IMG/VR virus record: IMGVR_UViG_3300050491_000011
Length of the DNA stretch: 64,000 nt
Reading direction: 5' to 3' (one strand)
Source: a virus
Taxonomy: Duplodnaviria > Caudoviricetes
In this document: positions 74 through 34,742 of the stretch, piece by piece
Layout: every line of letters begins with the position of its first letter
How positions within the stretch are numbered: the stretch's first letter is position 1
Translations under genes and position numbers: made by a program
Notes under the pieces: model-generated
What the model was told of the DNA's origin: nothing
Database searches by the model: none
What the model saw: the letters and a program-made list of their open reading frames with translations, nothing else

Positions 74-86
74 GACCGAGGAGGTC
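74..86 (+). promoter_or_regulatory. SD-loop leader hairpin (GACC-GAGGA-GGTC)
   Basis: 4-bp stem with pentaloop, 3 nt before ATG 90; one of 11 copies. Confidence 0.75.
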
Positions 87-89
87 AAC

Positions 90-344
90 ATGAACACTGC
101 ATTCCACGAACAAGCAATCATCAAACTGAACAGCCGCTACATGGCTCTGCGTGATCGACTGAAGCTGATGGCTATCCAGCCTTGCGCTTGGCCAGTTGCT
201 CAAGACCCGCTGTTCCAACGCTTCACTGATTTGATGCTGGATACTGATCCTACTCCTGACAACATCGAGCAGATCACTTCCGGCATCAATAAACTGATTC
301 TGGTTATCGACGACGAAGTCGATGTCCTTGCTCTAGCTGATTAA
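90..344 (+). CDS. Hypothetical protein (84 aa)
   Basis: ORF with GGAGG SD and typical codon usage. Confidence 0.8.
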   Translation: MNTAFHEQAIIKLNSRYMALRDRLKLMAIQPCAWPVAQDPLFQRFTDLMLDTDPTPDNIEQITSGINKLILVIDDEVDVLALAD

Positions 345-391
345 CTTAAACCCCCGGCGGGAATGTTCCCGCCAACCCCTTTCTTATAAAC

Positions 392-404
392 GTCCGTGGA
401 GGAC
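392..404 (+). promoter_or_regulatory. SD-loop leader hairpin (GTCC-GTGGA-GGAC)
   Basis: Compensatory variant of the motif, 4 nt before ATG 409. Confidence 0.75.
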
Positions 405-408
405 TAGC

Positions 409-942
409 ATGAAAAACCGTAACTTTATTACTAAGACCCCAATCAACACCAAGCGTCTGGTAACTGTTCTTGATGACACCTTCGGGATGGTCGGCTACAG
501 TGTCGAGCGCAACATCGGCGATGCATTCGTGTACATCAAGGAACACGATTACTTCGTCCGCTTCAACTTCTTCACCGCTGACTACAAGGACTACGCCACA
601 GCGGCGCAGTACTTGGAGCTTCCCGTAATTACTAACTATCTGTACAACGATTATGTACAGCGGTTGGAATACGAGCAAGCAGTCAGCAATGCGCTCAGAG
701 GTGCCATCAGCGAAGTCCAAATGGATCAGCTGCGTGTGTGTCTCGATAAGCTCGATAAGAACTTCGCTGGCGCTGACTTCGACGACTACGATCAAGTAGT
801 CGAAAGCATCTACGCTATCAAGCGTCTGGCTGTAGTTGACTCAGTCGTTGGTGTGGGCGAAGCCTTCATCGATGATCGCAGCACTTACAACCCGGCTGTT
901 CACTATTCGCTGAAAGTGATCCTGAGCTCCCGCCACTACTAA
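409..942 (+). CDS. Hypothetical protein (177 aa)
   Basis: ORF with SD, followed by a terminator. Confidence 0.85.
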   Translation: MKNRNFITKTPINTKRLVTVLDDTFGMVGYSVERNIGDAFVYIKEHDYFVRFNFFTADYKDYATAAQYLELPVITNYLYNDYVQRLEYEQAVSNALRGAISEVQMDQLRVCLDKLDKNFAGADFDDYDQVVESIYAIKRLAVVDSVVGVGEAFIDDRSTYNPAVHYSLKVILSSRHY

Positions 943-950
943 CCCGCAGC

Positions 951-982
951 AAGAGAGCAGCTAACCCTGCTCTCTTTTTTTT
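951..982 (+). terminator. Intrinsic terminator
   Basis: AGAGAGCAG/CTGCTCTCT stem followed by a T-run. Confidence 0.85.
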
Positions 983-1005
983 TACCCTAAAAAAGGAATA
1001 CCCCG

Positions 1006-1662
1006 ATGTTCGAACAAACCGAATCGCGTCAACTGACTGAAGCTCAGAAGAAAGACATTCAGAAGAAGTACGAGCAAGGTCTGAATCAGGACAAGGTCAA
1101 GAGCGCCCTGCACTCTGTCGACATGTCTCTGGGCATCTTCGGCGGCGGTAGCAAGATCTCCCTGATGGAGCGTCCAATCAGCCGTTTCGTCTTCCACGCA
1201 ATCTTCTCCAGCCCGAAGGTCGAATCGTTCTTCCGTCGCTGCCACGAAGCCGATACTTTCATCACGGCCGAAGAGTTCGCCGAGTTCGAAAAGATCTGCC
1301 AAGAGATCACCGTCAAGATCTCCAAGACCTCCATCGAACAGATCTTCCTGTCGGCCGCCAAGCTGCCGCACACCAATGTTGATCTGTGGGTGATCGAAGC
1401 TGACTGGCGTGACCTGACTGCCCGCATCACCTGGACTCCAGAAATGGAAGAAGCGATCGAGCAGCAAATGGGCGGTATCTTCAACCACCTCGAGCGTCTG
1501 CGCGTACTCACCAGCCGTGACGTTCAGTACTCGACTCTGGCCGACGTACTGACCGGTGAAGCTGCCTCTGAAGCTCGTGGTAACGAAGCGCTGATGGAAG
1601 CATCCTGCGCCCTGCTGCGTCAGTACATGCTCTCCATGCCGATGCAACAACATATCGGCTAA
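1006..1662 (+). CDS. Hypothetical protein (218 aa)
   Basis: ORF with AAGGA SD and strongly biased codons. Confidence 0.85.
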   Translation: MFEQTESRQLTEAQKKDIQKKYEQGLNQDKVKSALHSVDMSLGIFGGGSKISLMERPISRFVFHAIFSSPKVESFFRRCHEADTFITAEEFAEFEKICQEITVKISKTSIEQIFLSAAKLPHTNVDLWVIEADWRDLTARITWTPEMEEAIEQQMGGIFNHLERLRVLTSRDVQYSTLADVLTGEAASEARGNEALMEASCALLRQYMLSMPMQQHIG

Positions 1663-1668
1663 ACGACT

Positions 1669-1707
1669 GGCGCTCCTTCGGGGGCGCCGCTCCACTTTCT
1701 TTTTTTT
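1669..1707 (+). terminator. Intrinsic terminator
   Basis: GGCGCTCC-TTCG-GGGGCGCC, then a T-rich tract. Confidence 0.8.
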
Positions 1708-1722
1708 ATCTGGAGATTGGAT

Positions 1723-2178
1723 ATGAATGGGTTAAGACCTACCGTCCGTAATGTCTTCTTCTACATGGCAGTTATTCTTCTTGTACTCGCTGCATTGAAG
1801 TGCGGCGCTGTCTACAGTAAGTACGGTATTGAAGAACCGCGTGAGGTTAAGCTGACTGAAGCTTGGTCGTACCTAAGTGGCAATAAGCAATCCATGTCCG
1901 AACATTGGAAGGGCTATTTCATTGACGTGAAGTCAGGTAAGAGTTTCGAGCGTGAACTCGAAGGGCGTCTTTATAACCAGTTCCGTAACAACGGCCCTAT
2001 CACGATGACAGTGAACTTGCCGCGAGAATACTGGGCTGCGCCCGGCGACAGTGTTGAGAACCGTGAGGAGGCTATTTCCTTCTTCGGTAAGTGGATTCTG
2101 TGGATCGTGATAGGGTTCCTACTCCTCAAGTGGTGGTTAGGTACTTGGGGCGAATGGGGAGACAAATACAACTATTGA
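1723..2178 (+). CDS. Membrane protein with two predicted TM segments, paralog of 2974..3435
   Basis: Hydrophobic N- and C-terminal segments; shared PREV..W...G.K.S..E...GYF.D..G..FE motif; ATG 1723 chosen from GGAG SD. Confidence 0.8.
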   Translation: MNGLRPTVRNVFFYMAVILLVLAALKCGAVYSKYGIEEPREVKLTEAWSYLSGNKQSMSEHWKGYFIDVKSGKSFERELEGRLYNQFRNNGPITMTVNLPREYWAAPGDSVENREEAISFFGKWILWIVIGFLLLKWWLGTWGEWGDKYNY

Positions 2179-2205
2179 TGCTATGCCCACCTTGAGGATA
2201 GCATC

Positions 2206-2652
2206 ATGGCATCAAAAGAAAGACTGTTTGGTAATCTGGACACGCGTGAATTAGCACGTCAGGACTATCTCCTATTAGGAGACTTCTGGCGTCAAGACAA
2301 AGAGCTGGGACACATCGTTGCAAAGAAAGGCTTTCGTACCAACTACGCAAGTATCGATATCTTGCTGAAGACTGGTTTGATTTTCTTCTATGCCTTCTTG
2401 GCAAGTTACGGGGATCAGTCTGCAACCATCCACGACTGGCTGTATAGCGGCTATGGCATCGAACGTGCTAACGGCAGTATCTACTATCCTACCCGTAGAG
2501 AATGCGATGAGATCTTCCACAGAGCCTTGCTGGATGAGGGTGTGGGACCTATCAGAGCGATGTTGTTCTACATCGGTGTAAGGTTGGGCGGCGCTTCGCA
2601 TTATTCACATGAACCAGTTACGTTTGTGCCTCAGGCTGTAATCGAGGCGTAG
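2206..2652 (+). CDS. DUF1353-like protein
   Basis: F.TNYASI...ATIHDWLY...R.ECD.IF...L...GV...VRLGG matches the recalled DUF1353 pattern. Confidence 0.75.
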   Translation: MASKERLFGNLDTRELARQDYLLLGDFWRQDKELGHIVAKKGFRTNYASIDILLKTGLIFFYAFLASYGDQSATIHDWLYSGYGIERANGSIYYPTRRECDEIFHRALLDEGVGPIRAMLFYIGVRLGGASHYSHEPVTFVPQAVIEA

Positions 2653-2673
2653 TAGATTAATAGAAGGGCGACC

Positions 2674-2964
2674 ATGGAACGATTTCATCGTAAGAAAGAA
2701 GCAGAAGCGAGAGGATTCTACTTTCTAGATCATGAATGTACCGGTAAGGTTTACACCGGGAAGTCCATGAACATCATGAAAGAAGTATTGGCCATCAGAG
2801 CGGCCTTGAGAGTCGGGAACTGTAAATGCAAGAAGCTTCAGAAGCTCTTCAATTCAGATCCTGAGTTTGATGTGCGGTTTGTATTAACGAAGGCAATGCC
2901 TGACGCTGCGCTACTCGAGAAAGAGTTCCGTAAAGGTAAGCCCAAACATCTATTGATCAACTGA
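2674..2964 (+). CDS. Short degenerate GIY-YIG-like domain protein
   Basis: GFY-(10 aa)-YTG motif followed by L..G....LQ.LFN.D..F. Confidence 0.6.
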   Translation: MERFHRKKEAEARGFYFLDHECTGKVYTGKSMNIMKEVLAIRAALRVGNCKCKKLQKLFNSDPEFDVRFVLTKAMPDAALLEKEFRKGKPKHLLIN

Positions 2965-2973
2965 GGTAAAGAC

Positions 2974-3435
2974 ATGAAGTCTATCTGGACTGTATTCAAA
3001 CCGTGGAATCTTCCGTGGCTACTCATCACCATCGGGTTGGCGTTTACGTCGTACCACTATTACGGTGAGTATTCAGCTTACCGTAATAAGGCGCCTCGTG
3101 AAGTCGTTCTCCTCGATACGTGGAGTGAAATGCGCGGATCGAAACACAGCGTACATGAGGAGTTCGTTGGATACTTCCGCGATAACCTCACGGGTGCTGG
3201 TTTCGAGTATCCGGTAAGTGGTGGTCTTCACAAGTCGTTCTCCAAGACACTGAAGGCGATGCCTCTGAAGTTTCCGTTGGCGGAGCGCGACCTGAAGTTA
3301 GGGCAGCATAAAGACTGGATGATGTTCGTCTTCCTGATTGCCGGCATTGTGTCGTTGGTATCGCTGGTAGTACGTGTCGGTATCTGGGGCGAATCGATCA
3401 GCAAGAAGTCGTACGAGAAACACAAGAAAGAATAG
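2974..3435 (+). CDS. Membrane protein, paralog of 1723..2178
   Basis: Same TM-soluble-TM layout and shared motif. Confidence 0.8.
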   Translation: MKSIWTVFKPWNLPWLLITIGLAFTSYHYYGEYSAYRNKAPREVVLLDTWSEMRGSKHSVHEEFVGYFRDNLTGAGFEYPVSGGLHKSFSKTLKAMPLKFPLAERDLKLGQHKDWMMFVFLIAGIVSLVSLVVRVGIWGESISKKSYEKHKKE

Positions 3436-3442
3436 TACGCGA

Positions 3443-3475
3443 CATAAGGCCCGGCGTGAGCCGGGCTTTATGCTG
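3443..3475. terminator. Bidirectional hairpin terminator, CATAA...TTTATGC class
   Basis: CATAAGGCCCGGC-GTGA-GCCGGGCTTTATG between convergent genes. Confidence 0.8.
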
Positions 3476-3479
3476 TTCG

Positions 3480-6400
3480 TTACTTGATGCTGCGTTCCAT
3501 CCACAACAGCAGAGCGATGATCGTGTCCTTAGCGATCGAGTCTGGATGAGGTAGGCTCTCCACGAAGACTTGACAAACTCCCTGGTGATACCACTTATCG
3601 TAGAAATCCATGTACAGGGGATTGTCGTAATCGTAGATAGCGTCACTGAAAGCAGAGCCATCCGAGTGATCCAACCAAGTGAACCAGTAGTCCTGCTCAT
3701 ACATCGGAAGGAGCTGCTCGATCAACTTAACTGCCTGTAGGATCTCAGCTTGTGTCAATGCCTTGATCGTATCAGGAGCCTTCACTGGGATTTCACGACG
3801 GTTAATCCAAATGTCGAACTCACGTTTCTCCACCTTTTCGGTGAAGACCATGTGGCCACCGATAGAGTGAGTAGGCTTCAGATCAGTGATAGGGGTTGGG
3901 ATTTTGTTGAAGTCGGCGATAGCCTTCTCCCCCAGCTCCTTTACCTTATCCGCATCATCTTCATTGATCGCCGCGATGATCTTCGGCTTCACATCCTTGT
4001 AGATCGATTGAACCGCGTCGTTCATGGCTTTCAGTTGACCATGGTACTTATCGCACATCCGACTAGCGTCATTCACAGCGCTACTGACAGCAGATACCGA
4101 TCCCAAGAACTTACCGTTCACCGACAGTTCTTGAGCGATGCCACCACTTGATACCGTGGTATTGAAAGTCTGTTCCGACAACCATTTACTGTTGCCGAAG
4201 TATTCTTTCAGGTATCTGTCGAGGCCTGTCGCATCGAGATGGTTGTGCTTTTCTTTAATGACGGCCTTGTTCTTGGCTTCATCCATCTTCTTCTTTGGAT
4301 CGCCGACGATCAGACTTTTAATGCTCTTCAGCATGTCGGAGAAACTTTCAAAGGAAGGTGGAATAACCTTGATCTGCACAGAGTAACCATGCAGAGCCTG
4401 CTTGATATCGACAGGCACGCAACGAACGATGTTCTTGCTGACTTCGCCTTGAGTCTTGTACTCGCCAGACAATCCATTGACTGGGTTGTAGTTCGCCATC
4501 CAACCATCTTTGACGTCAGGTTTGATCGTGTACAGGAATACCTGCAACGAATGAACATCAGCGAGTGTCAGAGGTTCGTTCGACTCGATCTCGATACGAC
4601 GGCCAGTGAACTTGTAGCGGTTGAGTTTGAACTTCTTCTCGATAGCCGAGGAGATACCCAACATCACCGCTGCATCTTTATCGTCAGATGCGTAGAGCCA
4701 TTCATTAGACTCGCACTTATCCCAACGAACGATCTCACCGCTACGCTGGAAGCCAGGCATCAACTCACCTTGCTTGAACGCAGAACCATGGTACAGATAG
4801 TTCGGCAGATCCACTTCTGGTTCTTCACGCATGGAGTGCGGCGCAACGGTGTCGCTCACTTCGCGGCTATAAGCAGCCGACTGAGAGTTCCAGCCTTCGC
4901 CACCACCACGATGCATGTCGCCTTGGAAGACACCAAGCAGATCAGCAACGAACCCAGCCAGATCAGACATGAAGTCGAACACTTCCAGAGACAGAGTCTC
5001 AGTGTCCACGTTCTTGATGCCGAGGATAGATGCGGTCATTTCAGCCGACCACGTCAGGATGTCGTTACTGCGAGTGGAGATGTTTGGAGCATCGCCAGTA
5101 TCCAGCAAGAAATCGAAGACGAATACTTCACTGTCTTGACCCAAGCGGGCAGCACGAGCGATTGTCTGTGTGCGAATCGCATCACGGAACGGTTGGTTCA
5201 ACATCAGGATGGTGTTGGCTACTGTCAACGGAACGGCAGTTGACAGACTCTGGAACGTAGCCACCAGAGGATTGAGATCCTCATCCTTGTAGTACTTGGC
5301 CACGATGGTTGGTAAGTCCTTGTTGGTCTCACCGTAAACCTTCGCTGGGGTATACCCATCGTGGTACAGTTTGTCGGCAGCAGCTTCCAGCACTTCAACG
5401 TAACTGGTGAAGACCAGCGTCTTCTTCTTAGCCGCATCGATATACTTCTCAAGATCGATGTGTGCCAGCATGTCCAGGTGGCATGCACTGCGAGCCTTAC
5501 CAAGCACCCCGCCGAGTGCTTCACCCATGATCTTCAACTTGACATATTTAACAACGCTGCGGGCACCTTTGAACTCAGCTTTCAGAGAACCATTCAGCTG
5601 CGGCATGATGGTCTTCAGCTCGTACCGATTACAGAGCTGAGCCTCAGCCTTCATGGTCATCGGATCAAATCCGCCAGATACAGTTGCAAAAGCAGATCGA
5701 TAAGCATTGAACTCACGACGATCAAGATCAGTACGAAGAGTCTTCTCAAATTCATTGAGACCTTCCTTGTACTTATCTTCGTAGAACTTCCGGTTCTTCT
5801 CGTAGTAGTCCCTGCGTTCATCAATGAACTTACGCATCCGAGCGCCGATGGCTTCCAACGTATAGTCGTTACCATTAGGCATCTTCACCATGACCTGTTC
5901 CACAGTCACCACTGTGTCTACCACGTCCTGTTTAGGAACGTGATACTTCAGGTGACCGATACGGTTACGGAGAATGTCGTTTGCGCGCTTAGCATCCTTG
6001 CCGTAGATCTTACGGAAGGCTTCTTCGCAGTTGTCATCAAAGTACGGATCGACACACTTAAGGAAAGGAATACATTCCGATCCCATCGCTTGGATTGGTG
6101 TGCCAGACATCCAGAGGCAGTAAGCAATAGTCGGCATCTTACACATCTCGACCAAGAGCTGGGTGCGGTCGGCAGCAAGACGGTTGAAGTTGTGCGACTC
6201 GTCGACGATGATCATGGCGTCTTTGAAGTCACGAGGGTTGGCTTTAACGAAATCGAAGATCGTTTGGATCGACTCGTAGTGGCAAACGTAGAAGTGCTCG
6301 TCCAGCGTCGGGAGACGACCTTCAGTACTCACCCAGTAACGACGCTTGGTCATCATGATGTCTTGGATGGTATCTTTCCAAACACGCTCTGCGGCGTTCT

Positions 6401-6935: not shown

Positions 6936-7040
6936 GGTGTTCCCCGTACTTCAAATAATGGAAGGTAAATGACATAAAATGTGTTGCTGCTTACTGAACG
7001 GTTTTATAGGCACACATAATCAAAGTACATAACCGCAATC

Positions 7041-7053
7041 GACTGAGGAAGTC
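7041..7053 (+). promoter_or_regulatory. SD-loop leader hairpin (GACT-GAGGA-AGTC)
   Basis: Compensatory T-A variant, 3 nt before ATG 7057. Confidence 0.75.
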
Positions 7054-7056
7054 AGC

Positions 7057-7605
7057 ATGACCGAGCTTAAAGATCCGTACGTTTTGTTTGAAGCACTGGT
7101 AGCAATTTCTAAGGGCTGCACTAACGTAACTCAGGCCAAGAGTATCGCAGCACAAGCGCTTAAAGACTACAGCGCTGGTGATGTACGTTTGGCTGTGAAG
7201 TCTGGCGTAGACAAAGTGACTGGCGCGGTGTTCCAACCTGTTACTCCGGGAATGTATACGAAGCCTGGCCAGAACTTAACTAGCTACGTTCTGGACATTC
7301 CTTATAACGACGAATGCGAATACCGCTGCGTGTACGTCAGTTATCGTAACGGCGATTCCACTCGATTCATCCTTGAGACTCCTAAAGGCGTTGATACTAA
7401 CGTACTCAAGAACGAACTCAAGGATGCTGGTCTCGGTTGGTATCTGCGTAACAATCCTGAATTCAAATACTGGATTCTGGATGATGTCGCTAAGACCAAG
7501 ATCGAAGCAGACTTCAAACCAACCACTCCGGTAATCACAATCCGCGAGTGGAACCACAATAAACGTTTCCGCCATGGCTACATTGTGGTGGGTAAACACT
7601 CATGA
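7057..7605 (+). CDS. Hypothetical protein (182 aa)
   Basis: ORF with leader hairpin; stop overlaps the next start (ATGA). Confidence 0.85.
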   Translation: MTELKDPYVLFEALVAISKGCTNVTQAKSIAAQALKDYSAGDVRLAVKSGVDKVTGAVFQPVTPGMYTKPGQNLTSYVLDIPYNDECEYRCVYVSYRNGDSTRFILETPKGVDTNVLKNELKDAGLGWYLRNNPEFKYWILDDVAKTKIEADFKPTTPVITIREWNHNKRFRHGYIVVGKHS

Positions 7606-8942: not shown

Positions 8943-8950
8943 GCGGCATA

Positions 8951-8995
8951 AGTACCCACTCCTTCGGGAGTGGGTACTGTCACTTCTTTTTTTTA
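8951..8995. terminator. Intrinsic terminator at a convergent junction
   Basis: 12-bp stem AGTACCCACTCC-TTCG-GGAGTGGGTACT plus T-run. Confidence 0.85.
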
Positions 8996-9310
8996 GAGTT
9001 CTTCTTCCGGAATGTCCACCATCGACACCGTCTGACCAGCCAGCTCGTGAGTGCAGTCATTGAGGAATTCCCACTGACCGTTACGAATAAAGCTGTGGCA
9101 AACAACGGCTTCCGTGCAGAACTTATTGAACTGAACCATAATGCTCGGAGAGTAAGTCGGCATATTGACGTTACCGTCCCACTGCCATTGCTGACCGCTC
9201 CCACTTGGCTTATCGATTGCGATGTGATGCATCCACTTACAGCCTGGGCAATAGAGCCCGTGCATATGTCCAGCAAAGAGTTCGATCTTTGGTGAAAGTA
9301 ATTCACTCAT
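8993..9310 (-). CDS. DUF6527-like small Cys/His metal-binding protein
   Basis: CPGC..MH...W.WDG....PTYSPSI...CHSFIRNGQWEFLNDCTH pattern. Confidence 0.75.
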   Translation of the reverse strand: MSELLSPKIELFAGHMHGLYCPGCKWMHHIAIDKPSGSGQQWQWDGNVNMPTYSPSIMVQFNKFCTEAVVCHSFIRNGQWEFLNDCTHELAGQTVSMVDIPEEEL

Positions 9311-9346
9311 GATTTGTATGTCCTATAGAACCGTTGGGGAACTAAC

Positions 9347-10189: not shown

Positions 10190-10203
10190 TCACTATTATA
10201 TAT

Positions 10204-10470
10204 GTACTAGGCTGCTTCGGGCTGATGAAGCCAAGTATCATGCTAGGTGGGCTCACACGCTCCTCCACCTAGCCACTGAGGTCGGGACGCTCTCCTCGAC
10301 CTAGGCGTTGATGTTCGCGGGTTCGTCAACGTCTTGTTAGGTACTCAGTACTTAGCCGTTTGTTCAGGGTATTGCGAGAGCGCGCCTTGAGCAAACGGAT
10401 AGCTACTGCGCCCCTGTGTGTTATCGGTATTCTCCCCACCCACTGGATTCGTCTGGTGGGTGGGGTTTAT
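10204..10470 (+). ncRNA. Candidate structured ncRNA 1
   Basis: No ORF with an SD; six tandem hairpins plus a terminal 14-bp UUCG hairpin; G-U pairs fit only the + strand; starts at TATG 10201-10204. Confidence 0.65.
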
Positions 10471-10534: not shown

Positions 10535-10927
10535 ATGACTCACATGCTGAACATCACGCTGGATAAGAACGATCGCGATAAACACTTCACCACTTACAAA
10601 GGTCGTAAGATCTACATCTCACCTCTTGCCGATAGTCGCGATAAGCCAGCCGCACCTGTCATCGCATTCAAAGGTCTTCTAGAAGGACATCTGACCGTCC
10701 ACATGGTTAAGACTTTTGACGGATACACTGACGAGTATCGACACACAATCCACAGTGGCGATTATAAGGGATACGTCTTCGTACTCGACCACGGATTCAA
10801 GATCAGCGTAGAAGAATTCAATAAGCGCTTCTATCCACATTACTACAAAGAAGATGGCGATAGAATCTGGCGCTGTCCTACACGTAGTTTAGACGAAGCG
10901 TGGGAGCATTCAGAAGAATACATTTAA
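10535..10927 (+). CDS. Hypothetical protein (130 aa)
   Basis: ORF with AAGGAG SD, downstream of a CAGTCACACAT motif. Confidence 0.85.
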   Translation: MTHMLNITLDKNDRDKHFTTYKGRKIYISPLADSRDKPAAPVIAFKGLLEGHLTVHMVKTFDGYTDEYRHTIHSGDYKGYVFVLDHGFKISVEEFNKRFYPHYYKEDGDRIWRCPTRSLDEAWEHSEEYI

Positions 10928-10932
10928 ATCGT

Positions 10933-11023
10933 AGTCAAATTAATTACAGTCACACATAGCGAGAGTACATACACACAACGATATCCATTCCGGATACGTT
11001 AAACGACCGTGGAGGTCAACATG
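10933..11023 (+). repeat. Promoter-leader cassette, copy 1
   Basis: 25-nt AGTCAAATTAATTACAGTCACACAT is identical to 32187-32211, and the leader downstream is near-identical. Confidence 0.85.
11005..11017 (+). promoter_or_regulatory. SD-loop leader hairpin (GACC-GTGGA-GGTC)
   Basis: 3 nt before ATG 11021. Confidence 0.75.
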
Positions 11024-11423: not shown

Positions 11424-11436
11424 GACCGAGGAGGTC
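11424..11436 (+). promoter_or_regulatory. SD-loop leader hairpin (GACC-GAGGA-GGTC)
   Basis: 3 nt before ATG 11440; AACGACCGAGGAGGTCAACATG is identical to 71-92. Confidence 0.75.
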
Positions 11437-12167: not shown

Positions 12168-12180
12168 GCCCGAGGAGGGC
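12168..12180 (+). promoter_or_regulatory. SD-loop leader hairpin (GCCC-GAGGA-GGGC)
   Basis: Compensatory C-G variant, 6 nt before ATG 12187. Confidence 0.7.
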
Positions 12181-24562: not shown

Positions 24563-24574
24563 ATTCCCAATTAA

Positions 24575-25069: not shown

Positions 25070-25077
25070 GGCGGACC

Positions 25078-25977: not shown

Positions 25978-26031
25978 GAGTATTCTCCCAATGGAAGTAG
26001 CAGACGGGTGTTGCCACCCGTCTGCATCCAC

Positions 26032-26910: not shown

Positions 26911-26921
26911 TGTTTCTATCC

Positions 26922-27863: not shown

Positions 27864-27868
27864 CTTGA

Positions 27869-28669
27869 TTAAGCCTCTTCGAGGATGTTGTAGTGAAGAT
27901 ACATCGGCCCGATCAGCTGGTCGCTGTAGAAGCCAGCCTGAACAACCACGCGGTCAAAGGCAGGGTTACTATCTTCGATAGCCGAGGTCGGATAGTCGGC
28001 AATATAACCTTCAGCCCAACCGGGAATACCCAGATACGAGCAGGCGTTCTGAAGAGCAGCCCAATCGGTGTAACGCGCCCCAGGATTTGTAGGCTTGATC
28101 GCATCACGAAGACTGGTGAAGTCAACATCCCACGTAACCATCCGAGCGGACATCTTCGAATTCACCGGGTCCGGGTGGTTACGGACTGGGAGGATCTTGA
28201 TGCCAACGATGCTATCAAGCAAGGACTTGGCGTGGGTGATGTTGATTACCGCTGAGCCGATGAAGCCACGACTGGTTGCCCGCGCGGTCAAGGTCAGTGT
28301 GTCAGCCTCGCCATTGGCCGGATTAGGCGGCGTAAACGGTACGAAGTCATCAACGGTAAGGAATAGGCCGAACGCGCCGTTAATCAGCGATACGATGCTT
28401 TCCTGCGTGAACACTTCTTCACTACGAACGTCCGCATCCTGAATGATGTCGCCAAGCACCAGACGTTTGTAATAGATGTCGACTTCGTTGTAGTAACCAC
28501 GCCCCGGAACCGACTTCACAGTCAGCTTGGTATTCGCAGTTTCCGTATCAACGACTTCGAGGTCTATCAGGCTGACGTTCATTTCAGTGAACGTCTTCGG
28601 CGGCACGTTGAGGATGTTTAGTTCCTCAATGATTTTACTGGTAGCAGACGGAACTGGAGGAACGGCCAT
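27869..28669 (-). CDS. Virion structural protein, N+C modules
   Basis: NTKLTV...GRGY...IYYKR; C-terminal MYLHYN. Confidence 0.8.
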   Translation of the reverse strand: MAVPPVPSATSKIIEELNILNVPPKTFTEMNVSLIDLEVVDTETANTKLTVKSVPGRGYYNEVDIYYKRLVLGDIIQDADVRSEEVFTQESIVSLINGAFGLFLTVDDFVPFTPPNPANGEADTLTLTARATSRGFIGSAVINITHAKSLLDSIVGIKILPVRNHPDPVNSKMSARMVTWDVDFTSLRDAIKPTNPGARYTDWAALQNACSYLGIPGWAEGYIADYPTSAIEDSNPAFDRVVVQAGFYSDQLIGPMYLHYNILEEA

Positions 28670-28680
28670 GACTACACCTC

Positions 28681-29514
28681 TTAATCCACAATCGGATCGT
28701 TAAAGTGAAGAACCAGTTGGCCAGACCAACCCAACGACTTGGTGTCATCGAGATCGACGATGATCACGTTGTCATAGTCCTGGTTGGAGATAGGTTCGCC
28801 AGAGGTCGGCCCTACGTAGCTAACGACCGCCCCATCCAAGGAGAAGCGGGAAGCGCCGACGAGCTGCCACGCATCGCCAGAGGCCGCCACAAGGGCATCC
28901 TTGATGATACCGAGACTATCTTGTCCAGTAACCACCGTACTTAGAGTAGCGTAGTAGCCACTCATGTTACGCCAGTAGGAATAACCGACCGAAGCGTAAG
29001 GTTTGGTGATCTGAGCCGAAGGGTAGTTCAAGCCCGGCAGTTGAGTGACGGTGATCACGTCAGATAGAGGCTGTGCCCCCAGAGCGAGACTGAACGTAAC
29101 TGTGCCAACCCAACCCATGCTATCAGCTTCAGCCACCAGCGTAACTTCACCAGCACCGTTCACCAAGGTCAATGGCGAAGAGACGATGTCGCCCGGCTCA
29201 AAGCCGATACCGTGCCGTTTGTTCAGCATGGCGACGAAGTCGTCAGTGGTACTGATGTCGTAGCCCTTGATGTTCGAGCTGATCAGGATCAGAAGATCCG
29301 CCAGATCCAAACGCTTATAGCGGATGGTAGTCGAACCATCGTAAGGACTCAGTGGGTTGAGTGCAGTAACCAGCAACGAAGTGTTAGTGCCTGATGCGTC
29401 CGGAGCAACTGCCGTAGGCGTACCGAACGTATACTCACCCGCAATCAGTTCGACGTTGTTTAACGTCTTGATCGCTTCGAGGATGGCATCAAGCGGTCTT
29501 TTATACAAAGCCAT
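28681..29514 (-). CDS. Virion structural protein, N+C modules
   Basis: FGTP..NTSL..YDG..IRYKR; C-terminal LHFNDP. Confidence 0.8.
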   Translation of the reverse strand: MALYKRPLDAILEAIKTLNNVELIAGEYTFGTPTAVAPDASGTNTSLLVTALNPLSPYDGSTTIRYKRLDLADLLILISSNIKGYDISTTDDFVAMLNKRHGIGFEPGDIVSSPLTLVNGAGEVTLVAEADSMGWVGTVTFSLALGAQPLSDVITVTQLPGLNYPSAQITKPYASVGYSYWRNMSGYYATLSTVVTGQDSLGIIKDALVAASGDAWQLVGASRFSLDGAVVSYVGPTSGEPISNQDYDNVIIVDLDDTKSLGWSGQLVLHFNDPIVD

Positions 29515-29526
29515 ATCGAAACCTCT

Positions 29527-30324
29527 TTATGACCGGTTGAAGTGAATATACGCGTCGCCTTTGTAGCCGTTGATGTCAACGCCCGTCTGGATGCAGACGT
29601 TGGTGAAATCTTGGTTGGCTTCAGGTACGTCTTTGGTCGAATACGACTTCACTGATTGAGTCATGAACACAGGGATGTCTGGGAAGCCCATCTCAATGAA
29701 CATCTTCTGGACAGCAGGCCAGTTGGTCCAACCGTACCAAGCAACGCCCAGAATGTTGGAGTAGTACGAGAAGTCCAGGCCCCACGTCGCCATGTCAAGG
29801 GAAGGTTTACCCAAGTCCAATGGATTGTGGTGGGATAGGACGTCCAGCTCTTTCTCCGCGATCGCTACTTCAAGCAGCGGACGGATACGGATGAACTGGA
29901 TAACAAACGTGCCTTCATAACCCAATGAGTTCGGGCTAGCCTTGATCACCAAGTTCGCCTGTTCGTTACCACCCAGCCAGTCAATCGGCTCGTTGATGAT
30001 ATCGATAGGTTGTAGGTTCAGGCCAAGACGTTTGTTCAGAATTGGGAGCAACCGATGGATGGTTGTCTGACCCAAGTCTTGGATGATCGGACGCACACCA
30101 CCAAAGACCTTATCGAAGTTGATGCGACGATATTTCCACCGCGCGTATCCTTCGTAGTCCTCGTTGTTGTACATCGTAACGGAGGGAAGTTCGATCGATC
30201 CATCAGCCAACGACTTCACGTTGCCGTAGTAAAGACCGCCTACTTCCAGCGGTACAGCCAAAGCGTTCTGTTCGTTGATGAGACCGACCAGCGCTTCTTC
30301 CGACGATCCCGGTAAAAGTAACAT
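29527..30324 (-). CDS. Virion structural protein, N+C modules
   Basis: LVGLINEQN..YEG..WKYRR; C-terminal YIHFN. Confidence 0.8.
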   Translation of the reverse strand: MLLLPGSSEEALVGLINEQNALAVPLEVGGLYYGNVKSLADGSIELPSVTMYNNEDYEGYARWKYRRINFDKVFGGVRPIIQDLGQTTIHRLLPILNKRLGLNLQPIDIINEPIDWLGGNEQANLVIKASPNSLGYEGTFVIQFIRIRPLLEVAIAEKELDVLSHHNPLDLGKPSLDMATWGLDFSYYSNILGVAWYGWTNWPAVQKMFIEMGFPDIPVFMTQSVKSYSTKDVPEANQDFTNVCIQTGVDINGYKGDAYIHFNRS

Positions 30325-30366
30325 AAGGCATCTCCTGGAGTCGAAGCTGACTTAAACGGTAAATAA

Positions 30367-30397
30367 GAGAGGACGAGGCCGAAACCCCGCCCTCTCA
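30367..30397 (-). terminator. Hairpin terminator on the minus strand
   Basis: Reverse complement GAGAGGGCGGGGT-TTCG-GCCTCGTCCTCTC; G-U pairs fit the minus strand. Confidence 0.65.
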
Positions 30398-30429
30398 GAT
30401 TTATTTGTATTAAGGCAGTGGTGAAGACC

Positions 30430-30954
30430 TTACGCTACTGGAACGTAGGTCAGACCGTTCAGTTCAGTCACGGTCAGGTATTCAGCCAGGTCGATCTCGT
30501 CGGACTTCAGATGGAAGGTCAGGCTGCCGATATACGCCAGCGAGTCAGCCTTCGCCACGACTTGTACGTCGTGAGTTTCGTTCGGGATACCACCGGTGAA
30601 GGTTGGCAGCACGCCGTCGACGAAGTCTTCAGCCTGGAGATTGATGTTCAGGAGAGCGTTCAGCTCTGGGATGATGTCAGCGATGTTGACCGCGTCACCC
30701 AGGTTGAAGGTTGCGTCCTTGCCCGATGGCACGAGGATCGCGGTGTTCAGGTGCAGACGGTTGTACTTGAACGTCTGGCTACCGACGAAACCCGAACCAG
30801 CTTTGGCGGTCAGGGTCACGGAGGTGTTCTTGTCGCCAGTGCTGTTTACGGTTGGCAGACCGATGTCGACGACGCCGTAGGTGATACCTTTGCCGTTGTC
30901 GGAGTTGATAAGGTCAAGGACTACGACCTTGCTTGCTTTAGTCATATCGCTCAT
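30430..30954 (-). CDS. Virion structural protein, N-module family
   Basis: VLDLINSDN..IGLP..KNTSV..GSGFVG..F.YNR; highly optimised codons suggest abundance. Confidence 0.8.
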   Translation of the reverse strand: MSDMTKASKVVVLDLINSDNGKGITYGVVDIGLPTVNSTGDKNTSVTLTAKAGSGFVGSQTFKYNRLHLNTAILVPSGKDATFNLGDAVNIADIIPELNALLNINLQAEDFVDGVLPTFTGGIPNETHDVQVVAKADSLAYIGSLTFHLKSDEIDLAEYLTVTELNGLTYVPVA

Positions 30955-31025
30955 TACAGGTACTCTTCAGTAAGTAAGGACAAGTCGGCCTTGGCCAACC
31001 ACATAGAATTCTACTTATACACGGA

Positions 31026-31553
31026 TCAAACAACCGGCTCGTAAGTCAAGCCATTCAGATCAGTGACAGGTAGATACGCGCTCAGAGGAATCAATTCAGG
31101 CTGCACTTCAAGAATCAATGAGCCAAGGTACACCATCGAATCGAACGTCACCTTGAGTTCAATGTTCGCCGACAGATTTGCACTGAGATCTGGCAGAGGT
31201 TTGTCGATGATCTTGCTTGCTGTCAGGTTGATGTTCAACCGTTCGTTAATAGCCGGCAAGAGATCGGACAGGTTCACTTCATCCGTGATAGTGAACTCTA
31301 GCGACGTCGTATCAGGATCTACGAAGTCTACTAGTCTTACTCGGTTGTAATAGAAGCTTTGACTACCTTCATAGCCTCTGCCCGCGACAGCCGTACCAAC
31401 CATCAGGGTATTACGATTCACCCCAGCAATAGGGGTATAAACGCTCGGAGTGCCAAAGGTCACCTGACTGGACGTTAAGGTCCTGTTCTGGTTATCTTGG
31501 CGAATGAGATCGATAACGACGTCTATCTCACTCCGTGTGTAGTCAATGGCCAT
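31026..31553 (-). CDS. Virion structural protein, N-module family
   Basis: VIDLIRQDN..FGTP..RNT..GRGYEG..FYYNR; paralog of 30430..30954. Confidence 0.8.
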   Translation of the reverse strand: MAIDYTRSEIDVVIDLIRQDNQNRTLTSSQVTFGTPSVYTPIAGVNRNTLMVGTAVAGRGYEGSQSFYYNRVRLVDFVDPDTTSLEFTITDEVNLSDLLPAINERLNINLTASKIIDKPLPDLSANLSANIELKVTFDSMVYLGSLILEVQPELIPLSAYLPVTDLNGLTYEPVV

Positions 31554-31596
31554 ACACGAGTTCTCGTTAAGGAATCAGGAGGTCATAGAATTTCGG

Positions 31597-32136
31597 TCAG
31601 TGGACTAACTGATCGTAAACTCCGCCGTCGGTCATTGGCTCGCCCCCAGGCGCTACAAGGCCGTTCAAAACGTTGTTCGGGAATTGTGACGCTAGGGTGA
31701 GGACTCCTTGGCTTGCGTTGAGTACAAGCGTTCCTAGCCACACGAAAGACCTATTCGAAACGGTGATGGTGACAACGCCGTCCACGTTGGTGTAATCTTT
31801 GATATCGTTCAGGCTCAATACGAAGTTGTACTTGAGCTTCAGGGCATTCACCACAGACGCAGGTGTGATCTCTCCCTGTACTTCGACACTGACATCGGGC
31901 TCGCCAATATCGATGAATGCTTGCTGCATATCCAAGCGGTTGTAATAGTAGACGTAACTGCCGGTGATCTGCCTACCACGAGCCGTAGCACCCACCTTCG
32001 TATTCTTTCCATCGAACTCGCCCAGCACCAAACCGGTGAAAGACAGGTTCGACGTACTAAGCGTTACGCCGTATCCTTCCAAGATGGCCTGATTCGCTAC
32101 CTGAATCATCTCGGCCAGCATTTCCTCACCGGTCAT
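31597..32136 (-). CDS. Virion structural protein, N-module family
   Basis: KNTKV.ATA.G....G..YYYNR; upstream TTTATG on the minus strand. Confidence 0.75.
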   Translation of the reverse strand: MTGEEMLAEMIQVANQAILEGYGVTLSTSNLSFTGLVLGEFDGKNTKVGATARGRQITGSYVYYYNRLDMQQAFIDIGEPDVSVEVQGEITPASVVNALKLKYNFVLSLNDIKDYTNVDGVVTITVSNRSFVWLGTLVLNASQGVLTLASQFPNNVLNGLVAPGGEPMTDGGVYDQLVH

Positions 32137-32186
32137 AGTCGATACCTGTGCATAAATGGATTAACTCTACATCCTATTTGGATTGG

Positions 32187-32277
32187 AGTCAAATTAATTA
32201 CAGTCACACATTGTCTCGGTACAACATAACAACGATATCAATTCCTGATACGTTGCAACGACCGAGGAGGTCACATG
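32187..32277 (+). repeat. Promoter-leader cassette, copy 2 (includes SD-loop hairpin GACC-GAGGA-GGTC at 32260-32272)
   Basis: Near-identical to 10933-11023. Confidence 0.85.
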
Positions 32278-32595
32278 GACAATAGTAAACTCGCTAACAC
32301 GTTGATGGGTATGGCTACTGAGCTGATGATTCAGTTCAATCGTACCACTGCGTTGAGTGAGACACTGCACAACCAGTACATGGAGCGTACGTCTGTAAAA
32401 GGACGGCACGAGTGCAGTAAGCCGGTGGATGCAAATGCCGAGGAGTTGGCTATTATCAGCAACTCTTTAGGTAAGCGGGTTCTTGAGATCGCTAATCTCT
32501 TGCGTCTGCTGCATCCGGCATACGAAGTCAAGATACCTGAAAGGGTTAAGTTGACTTACGTATCCACTGAGCTCGAGCTAACGCCTCGATCTTAG
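32275..32595 (+). CDS. Hypothetical protein (106 aa)
   Basis: ORF after the leader hairpin. Confidence 0.8.
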   Translation: MDNSKLANTLMGMATELMIQFNRTTALSETLHNQYMERTSVKGRHECSKPVDANAEELAIISNSLGKRVLEIANLLRLLHPAYEVKIPERVKLTYVSTELELTPRS

Positions 32596-32640
32596 TCGGC
32601 CGGCTACAGACGGGTGGAATTCTCCACCCGTTACCATAAC

Positions 32641-32653
32641 GACTGAGGAAGTC
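32641..32653 (+). promoter_or_regulatory. SD-loop leader hairpin (GACT-GAGGA-AGTC)
   Basis: 4 nt before ATG 32658. Confidence 0.75.
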
Positions 32654-32657
32654 TAAC

Positions 32658-32987
32658 ATGATGAACATCCCTACATTCTTGAAGCTGTGTGCAGTAGTTG
32701 CTACCGTTGGTGCAGCAGCAGGTGCTACAGTTGGTTACTTCGAAAAGAAAGAACGCGATCGTCAGGCTGAGGTTGTTAAGCGCAATATCAAAGACCTCAC
32801 CGCTCTCTGCAATGACATCATTGACGTCCACGGCCAGAAGGCTCTCAGCGCTAACCAGCTGGCGAACCTGCTGGAGATACGTCGGCGCATCGGTTCCGAC
32901 TTCAGCAACATGAAGTACCACGAGATCATGGTTCTTCAAAGCCAGATCGAAGTGATCTACAACGTTCTTAATTCTGCTCGCAAATAA
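32658..32987 (+). CDS. Membrane-anchored hypothetical protein, paralog of 33006..33344
   Basis: N-terminal hydrophobic anchor; ALS.NQL..L...R and Y...V...Q...IY..L..A.K shared. Confidence 0.8.
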   Translation: MMNIPTFLKLCAVVATVGAAAGATVGYFEKKERDRQAEVVKRNIKDLTALCNDIIDVHGQKALSANQLANLLEIRRRIGSDFSNMKYHEIMVLQSQIEVIYNVLNSARK

Positions 32988-32988
32988 C

Positions 32989-33001
32989 GACCGTGGAGGT
33001 C
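32989..33001 (+). promoter_or_regulatory. SD-loop leader hairpin (GACC-GTGGA-GGTC)
   Basis: 4 nt before ATG 33006. Confidence 0.75.
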
Positions 33002-33005
33002 TGTC

Positions 33006-33344
33006 ATGATTTCTGATGTACTCAAGATAGCAGCAGGCGTAACAATACTCGCCAGTGCCATTGGTGGAGCGATCTATTACGTCACCAAGAAGGATAACGA
33101 GAACAAGTTGGCAAGTATCAAACGGCAGGTGGGCGATAACCTGGACTTCATCGACGCTTACATCGCGTTGATGACCAGCGATGCGCTGTCTGTGAAGCAG
33201 CTGGGTGAGTTGGAGAAATTGCGTGAAGCGCACCAGACTCAATTCGCTGGAATCCCTTACAACGTGATGGTCGTTATGTTGGCTCAGTCCAACGGTATCT
33301 ACATGACCGTCCGTGATGCTGCAAAGGCACATCAGAAGAAATGA
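33006..33344 (+). CDS. Membrane-anchored hypothetical protein, paralog of 32658..32987
   Basis: Colinear similarity to the upstream gene. Confidence 0.8.
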   Translation: MISDVLKIAAGVTILASAIGGAIYYVTKKDNENKLASIKRQVGDNLDFIDAYIALMTSDALSVKQLGELEKLREAHQTQFAGIPYNVMVVMLAQSNGIYMTVRDAAKAHQKK

Positions 33345-33430
33345 TCGGGAAAGACCCTGATCTACCTACCCGATGAACCGCGGATCTTCAAAGAAGCTTT
33401 CCGCTGGCAATACCAACCCGAACCCGAATC

Positions 33431-33443
33431 GACTGAGGAAGTC
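33431..33443 (+). promoter_or_regulatory. SD-loop leader hairpin (GACT-GAGGA-AGTC)
   Basis: 5 nt before ATG 33449. Confidence 0.75.
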
Positions 33444-33448
33444 CTACC

Positions 33449-33979
33449 ATGCAAGATATCCAAAAGCAAATCGAAGATGACGTTAGCAAAGTCATTCGCG
33501 ACAAGAACACTCTCGCAGCTATCGACGCTGCTATTGAAGTTGGTGCGGACTACGAAACAAAGTTCCACGCCAACTGGATGATCGCTCGTGGTTTCTATAA
33601 CCTCGGCATCGTCACCGCGCTGTTCCATGCTGCTGATCGCGCCATCGAACGGATCGCTAAAGATCCTGAAGAACTCGGTTGCAAGATGGCATTCATCGAC
33701 AAAGATGGACGCGAGTGCATCATCATCGCAGGGCACCATGGCTACGTGTTCATGTATGCCAATGGTTACGTCTCTATCCATAGCGGGTATCACTGCGATA
33801 ACCTCGATGTCTTGATGGCCCTTGACGGAATTAGCTTAAAGCAAACATTCCGTGACCTCATGGTACAAGGCTTGCCATTCATGGGGCTGATTCCTATCCT
33901 CGATTCGATTGTAGAAAACCGATCGAACCAGGAAGAGATGACTCGCCTCCACGCAAAATTCAGAAGCTACTTGGCTTAA
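33449..33979 (+). CDS. Hypothetical protein (176 aa)
   Basis: ORF after the leader hairpin. Confidence 0.85.
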   Translation: MQDIQKQIEDDVSKVIRDKNTLAAIDAAIEVGADYETKFHANWMIARGFYNLGIVTALFHAADRAIERIAKDPEELGCKMAFIDKDGRECIIIAGHHGYVFMYANGYVSIHSGYHCDNLDVLMALDGISLKQTFRDLMVQGLPFMGLIPILDSIVENRSNQEEMTRLHAKFRSYLA

Positions 33980-33989
33980 GGAAACAATC

Positions 33990-34343
33990 ATGTCACTCGT
34001 ATCTGTAACCATCATGGGTAACGACCTGGTTCTCGGTTCTCAATCCGACCCACCGGTTGGTCACCGGATCGGCACAGTTCCGTTGAAGTTTGATAACGGT
34101 AAGACCGAGCATATCTGCGTGTTCGGTTCTGTCCACATCTACACCGATTCGAGAGAGCGTGATCACTTCGAGGCAGAGCTGCGTAAGTTCTGCCAAGATC
34201 CTGATACCGTTCAGAAGGTTCTCGACATCACCGGGCAATCTGCCTACGCTAAACGTTTCAATCCATCGCGGTCCCAAACGGATCGCGGCTGGTATCGTGC
34301 CGGTAAAACCGGTGGTCTAGAAACCCAACATAGCTGCGCGTAG
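33990..34343 (+). CDS. Hypothetical protein (117 aa)
   Basis: TAAGGA SD. Confidence 0.8.
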   Translation: MSLVSVTIMGNDLVLGSQSDPPVGHRIGTVPLKFDNGKTEHICVFGSVHIYTDSRERDHFEAELRKFCQDPDTVQKVLDITGQSAYAKRFNPSRSQTDRGWYRAGKTGGLETQHSCA

Positions 34344-34355
34344 GAGTGGTCCTGA

Positions 34356-34712
34356 ATGCGTGGACGATGTGAGTTGACCACAGATAGTAAACGCAGCAAA
34401 GAGCAGATGCTTAACAAACTGATGCGGATCAACCTCGCAATCGGTAAAGATCCTAGGTTCGCTGATCTACTGAATGACGAGATGTTTATTCAGAATCTGA
34501 AAGAGGCGCAAAAATACCTCAATCTGATGATCAACGATAATACTCTAATGGGTCGTGATCTTCGACACGTAATCACGTTATACCACGCACATGTTCACGA
34601 ATGGCTAGACGCTATACAAACCCATTGCGACTATAACCAAATCCTCGAAATAAATTTCAGGACTACGACTCTGGGTGAGTTGATCGAAGCCTTAGAACCG
34701 ACTACAAAGTAA
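34356..34712 (+). CDS. Hypothetical protein (start uncertain)
   Basis: ORF fills the gap in a + strand operon. Confidence 0.65.
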   Translation: MRGRCELTTDSKRSKEQMLNKLMRINLAIGKDPRFADLLNDEMFIQNLKEAQKYLNLMINDNTLMGRDLRHVITLYHAHVHEWLDAIQTHCDYNQILEINFRTTTLGELIEALEPTTK

Positions 34713-34729
34713 TACCCATTATACCCAAC

Positions 34730-34742
34730 GACCGTGGAGGTC
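34730..34742 (+). promoter_or_regulatory. SD-loop leader hairpin (GACC-GTGGA-GGTC)
   Basis: 3 nt before ATG 34746. Confidence 0.75.

Follow-up and report, generated by a model that had tools for sequence, protein, structure and literature searches.

Why should a phage fold the ribosome-binding sites of many small genes into one and the same hairpin? The question is raised by a 64,000-nucleotide stretch of a tailed phage genome (IMG/VR record IMGVR_UViG_3300050491_000011, Caudoviricetes; hereafter the window), which forms the last 64 kb of a viral contig of 188,198 bp with 51% G+C (G000). The element is 13 nt long, a 4-bp stem with a GNGGA loop over the Shine-Dalgarno sequence (SD), and occupies 11 sites in the window, all on the plus strand (Table 1). 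A first-pass annotation of the window had listed eleven such hairpins 2-6 nt before ATG codons and had taken them for a translational regulon. All of them were found again, with spacers between stem and ATG of 3, 4, 3, 3, 3, 6, 2, 4, 4, 5 and 3 nt in site order from 74 to 34730, and the recount of stems gave identical numbers (six GACC/GGTC, three GACT/AGTC, one GTCC/GGAC and one GCCC/GGGC). We argue below that the pairing is under selection, that the hairpin would act as RNA in translation initiation and, far more tentatively, that a trans-acting factor may read it.

The pattern GNCNGWGGARGNC matched the window 12 times, always on the plus strand, as compared with 0.44 matches expected from 100 shuffles, the highest of which contained three; the twelfth match (47864) has an unpaired stem and is unrelated to the hairpin set. 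A covariance model was trained on an alignment collected without regard to pairing, which did not contain site 7041, and the window was scanned with filters off. It recovered precisely the 11 sites at 21-27 bits, the best other match scoring 13.9 bits, and found site 7041 itself at 23.2 bits. Rfam, searched at the gathering threshold, returned no match in the window. In the whole contig, 16 perfect copies and one GGCC-GGGGA-GGCC variant were present, all on the plus strand and just before start codons. The repeats were not made by gene duplication, since similarity between sites stops about 3 nt beyond the stem, with unrelated flanks further out, and only two weak paralog pairs (33% and 27% identity) exist among the downstream proteins, one being the 128-aa protein behind hairpin 11424, a 33% paralog of the 130-aa protein behind hairpin 11005.

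To judge from its sequence, the contig is an incomplete copy of a phiKZ-like jumbo phage of about 254 kb. PHROG matches revealed a major head protein of phiKZ type (728 aa), helicases, virion proteins and a subunit of RNA polymerase. Among annotated capsids, that of Pseudomonas phage pPa_SNUABM_DT01 comes closest (37% identity), followed by Xanthomonas, Burkholderia and Ralstonia jumbo phages, and megablast of 12 kb against GenBank phages gave no match. Closer relatives, all of them uncultured, were found in IMG/VR: G001 (253,921 bp, direct terminal repeats, capsid 97% identical), the fragment G005 (75%), G002 and G003 (267 and 264 kb, 66-67%) and G004 (258 kb, 60%). G000 is considered incomplete because G001 has this length and direct terminal repeats, while G000 has 188 kb and lacks them; the approximately 65 kb absent from it relative to G001 include more hairpin operons (at 88.7 kb and 105.5 kb of G001). 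Near-identical DNA was present in public runs from soil, rhizosphere and compost DNA metagenomes, with no RNA run listed among them. The pattern GNCNGNGGARGNC had 15-21 matches in each genome of this clade, on one strand, as compared with 0-3 for the reversed control. With 17 copies in the contig and a clear score gap in the window, the covariance model and the wider scan, both proposed by the annotation as checks, bear the element out.

The annotation had considered perfect hairpins only, so its claim that every stem change is compensated might be circular. Sites were therefore re-collected regardless of pairing: genes were called in four genomes, and every N4-GNGGA-N4 located 1-10 nt upstream of a start was taken. 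Among the 171 sites obtained, 27, 37, 35, 5 and 67 had zero, one, two, three and four Watson-Crick pairs, respectively. The fully paired class thus counts 67 members where 0.7 are expected (binomial), and the class with three pairs stands at its background of about five; the distribution is bimodal, which indicates that no decayed copies exist. With the pairing-agnostic pattern NNCNGNGGARGNN, 71 gene-upstream matches were found in the four genomes, and all three free pairs were Watson-Crick in 66 of them, about one being expected. In an alignment of 64 plus-strand sites, 98.8% of cells were paired (76.6% in shuffles) and the covariation score was 0.591 (0.166 in shuffles). None of 500 shuffles reached either value, and the pairing signal was lost when the partner column was slid by 1-3 positions. 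Three of the four pairs covary: 1/13 (GC 50, AU 5, UA 5), 2/12 (AU 32, UA 18, CG 7, GC 2, GU 1) and 4/10 (CG 48, UA 11, UG 1); pair 3/11 is constant, but it was fixed by the search pattern. The sole member with a wobble pair, GGCT-GAGGA-AGTC (G.U at 2/12), was found in G001 at 105509 (L050:5509-5521), with the AAC flank retained and a 243-aa gene downstream.

The strongest evidence comes from orthologs, defined as reciprocal best hits. In the family of gene 34746, the stem is GACC in G000 and G001 (GACC-GCGGA-GGTC in the latter), GTCC in G003 (GTCC-GTGGA-GGAC) and ACCC in G004 (ACCC-GTGGA-GGGT); a second family has GGCC, GCCC and ACCC stems, each fully paired. Between G000 and G001, four stem switches were observed (GACC to GTCC, GACC to GACT, GGCC to GCCC and GACT to GACC), and both arms were altered each time. 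The ORFans behind the hairpins are 48-92% identical between these two genomes, with the hairpin kept. Where an ortholog has no hairpin, an ordinary SD such as TTAGGAG replaces it in full, and no half-broken hairpins were seen. Full compensation, as originally claimed, therefore holds both in the unbiased set and at orthologs, and it is well supported by these comparisons that the pairing is under selection and the hairpin a real structure, most plausibly one of RNA.

The geometry of the element is narrow. The stem has exactly 4 bp: three-pair versions are not enriched, and a fifth Watson-Crick pair is depleted (6 of 67 copies, 25% expected). The loops of the 67 copies are GAGGA (34), GTGGA (30), GGGGA (2) and GCGGA (1), with GGA at loop positions 3-5 in every copy and the start codon 1-9 nt downstream. 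Perfect 4-bp hairpins with loops of 3-7 nt occurred 161 times upstream of 1,112 genes as compared with 85 times in shuffles; only 5-nt GAGGA and GTGGA loops were in excess among them, and the surplus corresponds to this family. The first loop base is an invariant G, though it is unneeded for SD pairing. GNRNA is the one long-recognised family of pentaloops (PMC9830547), its boxB-like fold having a sheared G.A pair, a stack of three bases and an extruded fourth one. Since all 67 loops fit G-N-R-N-A, the loop may be of this type with a possible sheared G.A closure, a fold that would explain the invariant G. Common forms are predicted by ViennaRNA at about -5.9 kcal/mol (range -1.5 to -8.1), and in 48 of 67 contexts (-40 to +30) the exact hairpin is part of the minimum free energy (MFE) fold. 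G is scarce over the 15 nt upstream (8.9% versus 19%), GGA is depleted within the first 50 coding nt (0.19 per gene versus 0.59 in other genes, p = 1e-5), and only 34% of copies have GGA within 50 nt upstream. Directly 5' of the stem, an A-W-C triplet is nearly invariant in G000 and is also present in G001; the flank of G003 differs, with conserved A at -1, +1 and +4.

The SD itself is co-maintained with the stem. Copies with C4-G10 contain GGAG and those with U4-A10 contain GGAA, and loop A accompanies 9 of 10 U4-A10 stems as compared with 24 of 56 C4-G10 stems (p = 0.013). Loop A in the GACT/AGTC form yields UGAGGA, a sequence able to pair with the UCCUUA at the 3' end of 16S rRNA; the SD would thereby shift its register instead of simply weakening. 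From the GACT/AGTC form the annotation had argued that structure is kept at the cost of the SD (GGAGG to GGAAG); selection on structure stands, the weakening is refined to a shift of register, and the predicted complementarity shows ribosome pairing to be a co-constraint on the hairpin. Translational coupling to an upstream stop codon was considered as a rule and rejected, stop-to-stem distances ranging from -2 to >100 nt. An RNA-level element of translation initiation is well supported as the identity of the hairpin, because the copies are confined to the coding strand at SD distance, with the SD as their loop and its register compensated, and because the stem covaries and one copy has a G.U pair.

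As for the genes concerned, they are short (median 129 aa), and no family was found by Pfam and PHROGs searches with 10 of their proteins. No minus-strand gene, structural gene or replication/core gene has the hairpin, and within the operons it is absent where the SD of a gene overlaps the stop codon before it (TAAGGAG). The annotation had placed all copies before small non-structural genes, and the wider set, made up of small ORFans, agrees. With a position weight matrix (PWM), a conserved AT-rich promoter-like motif of the consensus TCGTAnTCAAAnnAATTACAGTCAyACATnnn gave 26 matches in G000 and 31 in G001, without exception on the plus strand, and was also present in G003 and G004. Hairpin genes lie <=2.5 kb downstream of a match with no opposing gene between in 54 of 66 cases, as compared with 212 of 730 other plus-strand genes (p = 3.5e-17), and 18 of them are the first gene after the motif, 31-61 nt away. 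Of 29 promoters in the longer conserved subclass, ACAT[AT]G[TC], 18 have hairpin genes behind them, as compared with 4 of 44 in the ACATTAC subclass (p = 2.8e-6); the latter precedes larger genes, including an ORF (open reading frame) of 670 aa. In jumbo phages encoding RNA polymerases, early operons are as a rule headed by such motifs (PMC7598289; PMC11512511), and by this analogy the promoter class of the hairpin genes, the most conserved of the phage, is probably the early class used by the virion RNA polymerase.

Table 1. Hairpins over Shine-Dalgarno sequences and associated promoter-like sites in the window
Feature	Position	Strand	Score	Start codon and ORF	Remarks
SD hairpin GACC-GAGGA-GGTC	74-86	+	27.4 bits	ATG 90, ORF 90-344 (84 aa)	
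SD hairpin GTCC-GTGGA-GGAC	392-404	+		ATG 409, ORF 409-942 (177 aa)	terminator-like hairpin immediately upstream
Promoter-like site	6989-7024	+	27 bits (PWM)		17 nt upstream of hairpin 7041
SD hairpin GACT-GAGGA-AGTC	7041-7053	+		ATG 7057, ORF 7057-7605 (182 aa)	G001 ortholog GACC/GGTC
Putative early promoter, conserved class (TCGTAGTCAAATTAATTACAGTCACACATAGCGAGA)	10929-10964	+	38 bits		heads operon with hairpins 11005, 11424 and 12168
SD hairpin GACC-GTGGA-GGTC	11005-11017	+		ATG 11021, ORF to 11413 (130 aa)	
SD hairpin GACC-GAGGA-GGTC	11424-11436	+		ATG 11440, ORF to 11826 (128 aa)	G001 ortholog GTCC-GTGGA-GGAC
SD hairpin GCCC-GAGGA-GGGC	12168-12180	+		ATG 12187, ORF to 12633 (148 aa)	
Putative early promoter, conserved class	32183-32218	+	34 bits		heads five-hairpin operon
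SD hairpin GACC-GAGGA-GGTC	32260-32272	+		ATG 32275, ORF to 32595 (106 aa)	
SD hairpin GACT-GAGGA-AGTC	32641-32653	+		ATG 32658, ORF to 32987 (109 aa)	
SD hairpin GACC-GTGGA-GGTC	32989-33001	+		ATG 33006, ORF to 33344 (112 aa)	G001 positional counterpart GTCC-GAGGA-GGAC
SD hairpin GACT-GAGGA-AGTC	33431-33443	+		ATG 33449, ORF to 33979 (176 aa)	
SD hairpin GACC-GTGGA-GGTC	34730-34742	+		ATG 34746, ORF to 35264 (172 aa)	

Further promoter-like sites of 36 nt lie on the plus strand of the window at 10470, 13814, 35620, 40471 and 56294. The two promoter subclasses, confined to the plus strand in all four genomes, may represent temporal classes. The motif often follows right after a hairpin-TTTATG terminator of the type known from phiKZ (PMC10914365). 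A perfect palindrome between convergent genes, CATAAAGACCGTGGG-TTTC-CCCACGGTCTTTATG at 46312-46345, resembles a bidirectional intrinsic terminator of this type (hairpin then TTTATG on either strand), and similar hairpin and TTTATG sites occur upstream of many promoter matches. A module of about 100 nt, comprising promoter, leader and hairpin, is 82% identical between 10922-11023 and 32176-32277 and ends exactly at the ATG, the downstream genes being unrelated; further matches to its copies lie at 88.6 kb and 244.0 kb of G001.

Outside the clade, the hairpin is sparse. In phiKZ, DT01, Xoo-sp14 and LucasX, the core pattern showed no excess over the reversed control, different hairpin types not being searched for. 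Among 185,579 prokaryote species genomes, the extended motif (AAC, hairpin and ATG) had 86 exact matches, which were scattered and came mostly from high-GC metagenome-assembled genomes; no taxon stood out among them, and no clue to the host was obtained. A few unrelated IMG/VR contigs contained the motif. One of them, L119 (IMGVR_UViG_3300021957_000868), is of temperate-phage type, with an integrase, a RecE-like exonuclease, a Sak-like annealase and a primase-helicase, and has sister contigs L095, L102, L104 and L107. Its two SD hairpins, GACC-GAGGA-GGTC and TGCC-GAGGA-GGCA, lie at 105 and 623 of the reverse complement before small ORFs, both behind the common leader CTTGGAAAACTA[AC]C. Another, L113 (IMGVR_UViG_3300008120_002880; 68% G+C), has GACC-GAGGA-GGTC hairpins at 638 and 1307; the ORFs behind them encode 134 and 126 aa, and the leaders are rich in A and C and unusually poor in G. 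Matched controls sharing the same 3' half were also compared in IMG/VR. Among the matches listed, whose counts are inflated by related contigs, GACC|GGTC was gene-start-like in 45% as compared with 20% for the broken form GTCC|GGTC (p = 1.7e-4), and GTCC|GGAC in 25% as compared with 21% for its broken form, which was not significant. Given the copies in L119 and L113, the hairpin design is not strictly private to the clade, and it is a genome-wide class mark only within it.

Early cassettes evolve much faster than core genes, as follows from the divergence of their ORFans given above and the 97% identity of the capsids. Small early genes have been replaced or inserted, for example at 32275-32640 and 34304-34716 of the window relative to 12.4-15.1 kb of G001, and the alignment of G000 with G001 ends <=20 nt from hairpins 32260, 32641 and 34730. 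In total, such ends were found at 5 of 17 hairpins; the share is 10.5% among gene starts overall (p = 0.026) and 6 of 33 among neighbouring ones (p = 0.48). A role of the hairpin as recombination junction may be considered, but its breakpoint excess is no higher than that of neighbouring gene starts.

What, then, reads the hairpin? The data show a selected structure, its position on the SD, its gene and promoter class and its clade distribution; that anything beyond the ribosome reads it, what this would be and in which direction it would act are inferred. The reading that we tentatively prefer, with confidence short of even, is that of a class-specific translational operator read by a trans-acting factor. 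The fixed 4-bp scaffold would present GGA in a defined shape and half-hide the SD, with GGA in the loop and the next 2-3 SD bases in the 3' arm. The 30S subunit could open the hairpin, as an SD:anti-SD helix of 6-7 bp would outcompete about -6 kcal/mol, and an RNA-binding factor acting in trans would recognise the shape of the hairpin and its adjacent flank and time the translation of the early gene set, probably by shut-off. Such a factor is more likely to be a new phage-encoded protein than host CsrA/Rsm. That it would be an RNA-binding protein of no known family, phage-encoded or virion-delivered, which turns the hairpin into a timing switch for immediate-early ORFans of this nucleus-forming lineage, is possible, if rather unlikely. 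The operator is favoured by a geometry that is invariant despite the wide range of predicted stabilities, by the invariant loop G1, by flanks that are conserved and lineage-specific, and by the single promoter class; a clade-limited distribution is expected if the hairpin co-evolves with its reader. Several points weigh against it. No CsrA, RegA (PF01818, Translat_reg), RegB (PF10715, REGB_T4), S1, CSD or ProQ domain was found in the complete relatives G001-G004, so any phage-encoded reader could only be a new protein. The hairpin is swappable with a plain SD at orthologs, and thus no single gene strictly needs it. Very similar hairpins also occur in unrelated temperate-phage contigs (the two copies with GACC/GGTC and TGCC/GGCA stems), which fits a clade-private reader poorly, and the label "early" is borrowed by analogy from phages of phiKZ type (PMC7598289; PMC11512511). 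The translational regulon of the annotation thus survives as a selected structure on the SD of a defined gene and promoter class; the readers it had named, host Rsm/Csr proteins or a phage-encoded RNA-binding protein, are as yet no more than candidates.

All these features can also be read in cis: a GNRNA fold would account for the constancy of G and A, much of the loop and of the 3' arm being fixed by the SD. The hairpin would then be a pre-organised, insulated ribosome-binding module with the ribosome as its sole reader, which keeps shuffled ORFan cassettes translated whatever their neighbours; we regard this as possible but doubtful, and judge in the same way its more detailed form, with the SD held in a small local fold, stacked 3' in a GNRNA-type loop, the 30S subunit nucleating on the loop GGA and displacing the 4-bp arm. 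The G-poor 15 nt upstream and the GGA-depleted early coding sequence are as expected if competing pairings are avoided. Recovery of the exact hairpin in the MFE fold in 48 of 67 contexts, the co-maintained SD strength (loop A in 9 of 10 U4-A10 variants, giving UGAGGA) and the depleted fifth pair, which keeps the stem openable, point the same way, as do the substitution by a plain SD among orthologs, the occurrence in unrelated phages, the lack of any reader protein found and the 5 of 17 G000-G001 gene replacements that start or end at hairpins. However, hairpin breakpoints are not above those of neighbouring gene starts, and many neighbour genes manage with plain TAAGGAG sites. A thermodynamic design should allow loops of different size and stems of 3 or 5 bp, none of which is enriched, while the predicted stability varies about five-fold in kcal/mol at fixed geometry; nor does insulation need lineage-specific flanks or a single promoter class.

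Host proteins of the CsrA/RsmA family, binding the GGA loop and repressing or modulating early genes, are an improbable reader. Pseudomonas and Xanthomonas, the hosts of the nearest annotated relatives, have Rsm proteins, and a host factor would suit the similar hairpins in unrelated phages; the phage itself comes from soil and rhizosphere metagenomes, and the extended motif marks no bacterial group (86 scattered matches in the 185,579 genomes). CsrA targets commonly offer a second nearby GGA that is bridged by the dimer. Here, a second GGA within dimer reach is depleted, not enriched, and the flanks vary by phage lineage. GGA in a short C-G-closed hairpin loop overlapping the SD is the canonical recognition mode of these proteins, and ANGGA pentaloops are reported to be effective RsmE targets, yet the A of A(N)GGA, specifically recognised by RsmE (PMC4005645), is G in 67 of 67 copies. 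What remains of the Csr/Rsm proposal of the annotation is therefore GGA in a hairpin loop on the SD, the G in place of A and the depleted second GGA speaking against the rest.

Very improbable is a mark or shield for an endoribonuclease, be it RegB-like cleavage of GGAG for shut-off or a fold that protects GGAG or stabilises processed 5' ends. T4 RegB cuts GGAG in intergenic SDs and thereby inactivates early mRNAs, and secondary structure inhibits it (PMC1702504). The hairpin likewise marks early-class SDs with GGAG or GGAA, but no RegB homolog (PF10715) was found in the four complete genomes, and RegB needs single-stranded GGAG and an A-rich tail (PMC1702504), whereas GGAG here lies inside a selected hairpin. 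A purely DNA-level role, as palindromic protein site, cruciform or microhomology module for cassette recombination, is scarcely credible. Its arms are indeed inverted repeats with nearly all pairs Watson-Crick, and some homology breakpoints and the repeated promoter-leader module end at the hairpin. However, every one of the 67 copies lies on the coding strand with a start codon 1-9 nt away, the asymmetric loop coincides with the SD, whose register is compensated, half-site changes that keep complementarity alone are ill-suited to a dimeric DNA binder, and the excess of breakpoints does not reach significance when local controls are used.

How nucleus-forming jumbo phages time their genes has been described almost wholly at the level of transcription, by virion and non-virion RNA polymerases, and no description of such an SD hairpin was found in the jumbo-phage literature searched, transcriptomes included. 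A hairpin on the ribosome-binding sites of one early ORFan class points to a layer of translational control, and its covariation is unusually clean for a structure of 13 nt. It could also serve as a sequence handle for probable immediate-early genes in uncultured relatives. If the ribosome is its sole reader, a compact and context-insulated design of ribosome-binding site would be of practical interest; if a new protein reads it, this would be a new RNA-protein regulon doing the job of T4 RegA/RegB with a boxB-like RNA.

Finally, the hairpin can be compared with known systems. With CsrA/RsmA-RsmE sites it shares GGA in a short C-G-closed hairpin loop on the SD, pentaloop targets being known there (PMC4005645). 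It differs from them in a loop that starts with G, the lack of a partner GGA, the 4-bp stem, the lineage-specific flanks and some 15-20 copies per phage genome. Lambda boxB is part of nut sites, is read by a small phage protein and acts in antitermination. A short stem with a G-N-R-N-A pentaloop in phage early transcripts (PMC9830547) is common to both, the likeness being one of sequence; boxB is not found on ribosome-binding sites, whereas the loop of the present hairpin coincides with the SD and has no known N-like partner. T4 RegB/RegA likewise involve a class mark on the initiation regions of early genes, with GGAG of intergenic SDs used for post-transcriptional shut-off (PMC1702504). RegB acts on single-stranded GGAG with an A-rich tail, however, while here the hairpin is conserved and no RegB or RegA homolog accompanies it. 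The MS2/R17 coat-protein operator is a small covarying hairpin of defined geometry on a translation start, which is bound by a phage protein and represses. MS2 has a single site per genome with another loop and a bulged A, whereas the present signal is multi-copy and belongs to a dsDNA jumbo phage. In T4-type PeSL cassettes, short conserved regulatory modules flank early ORFans in plastic regions (PMC2839356), and some gene replacements here also start or end at the hairpin; those modules are promoter and terminator stem-loops without SD hairpins, and the breakpoint excess at our sites is not significant relative to neighbours. The hairpin is thus of a known kind, that of hairpin operators on ribosome-binding sites (Csr/Rsm, MS2, T4 RegA/RegB), and what is new is the constant 4-bp/GNGGA geometry, the number of copies and the association with one promoter class; as an RNA family it would be a solid candidate.

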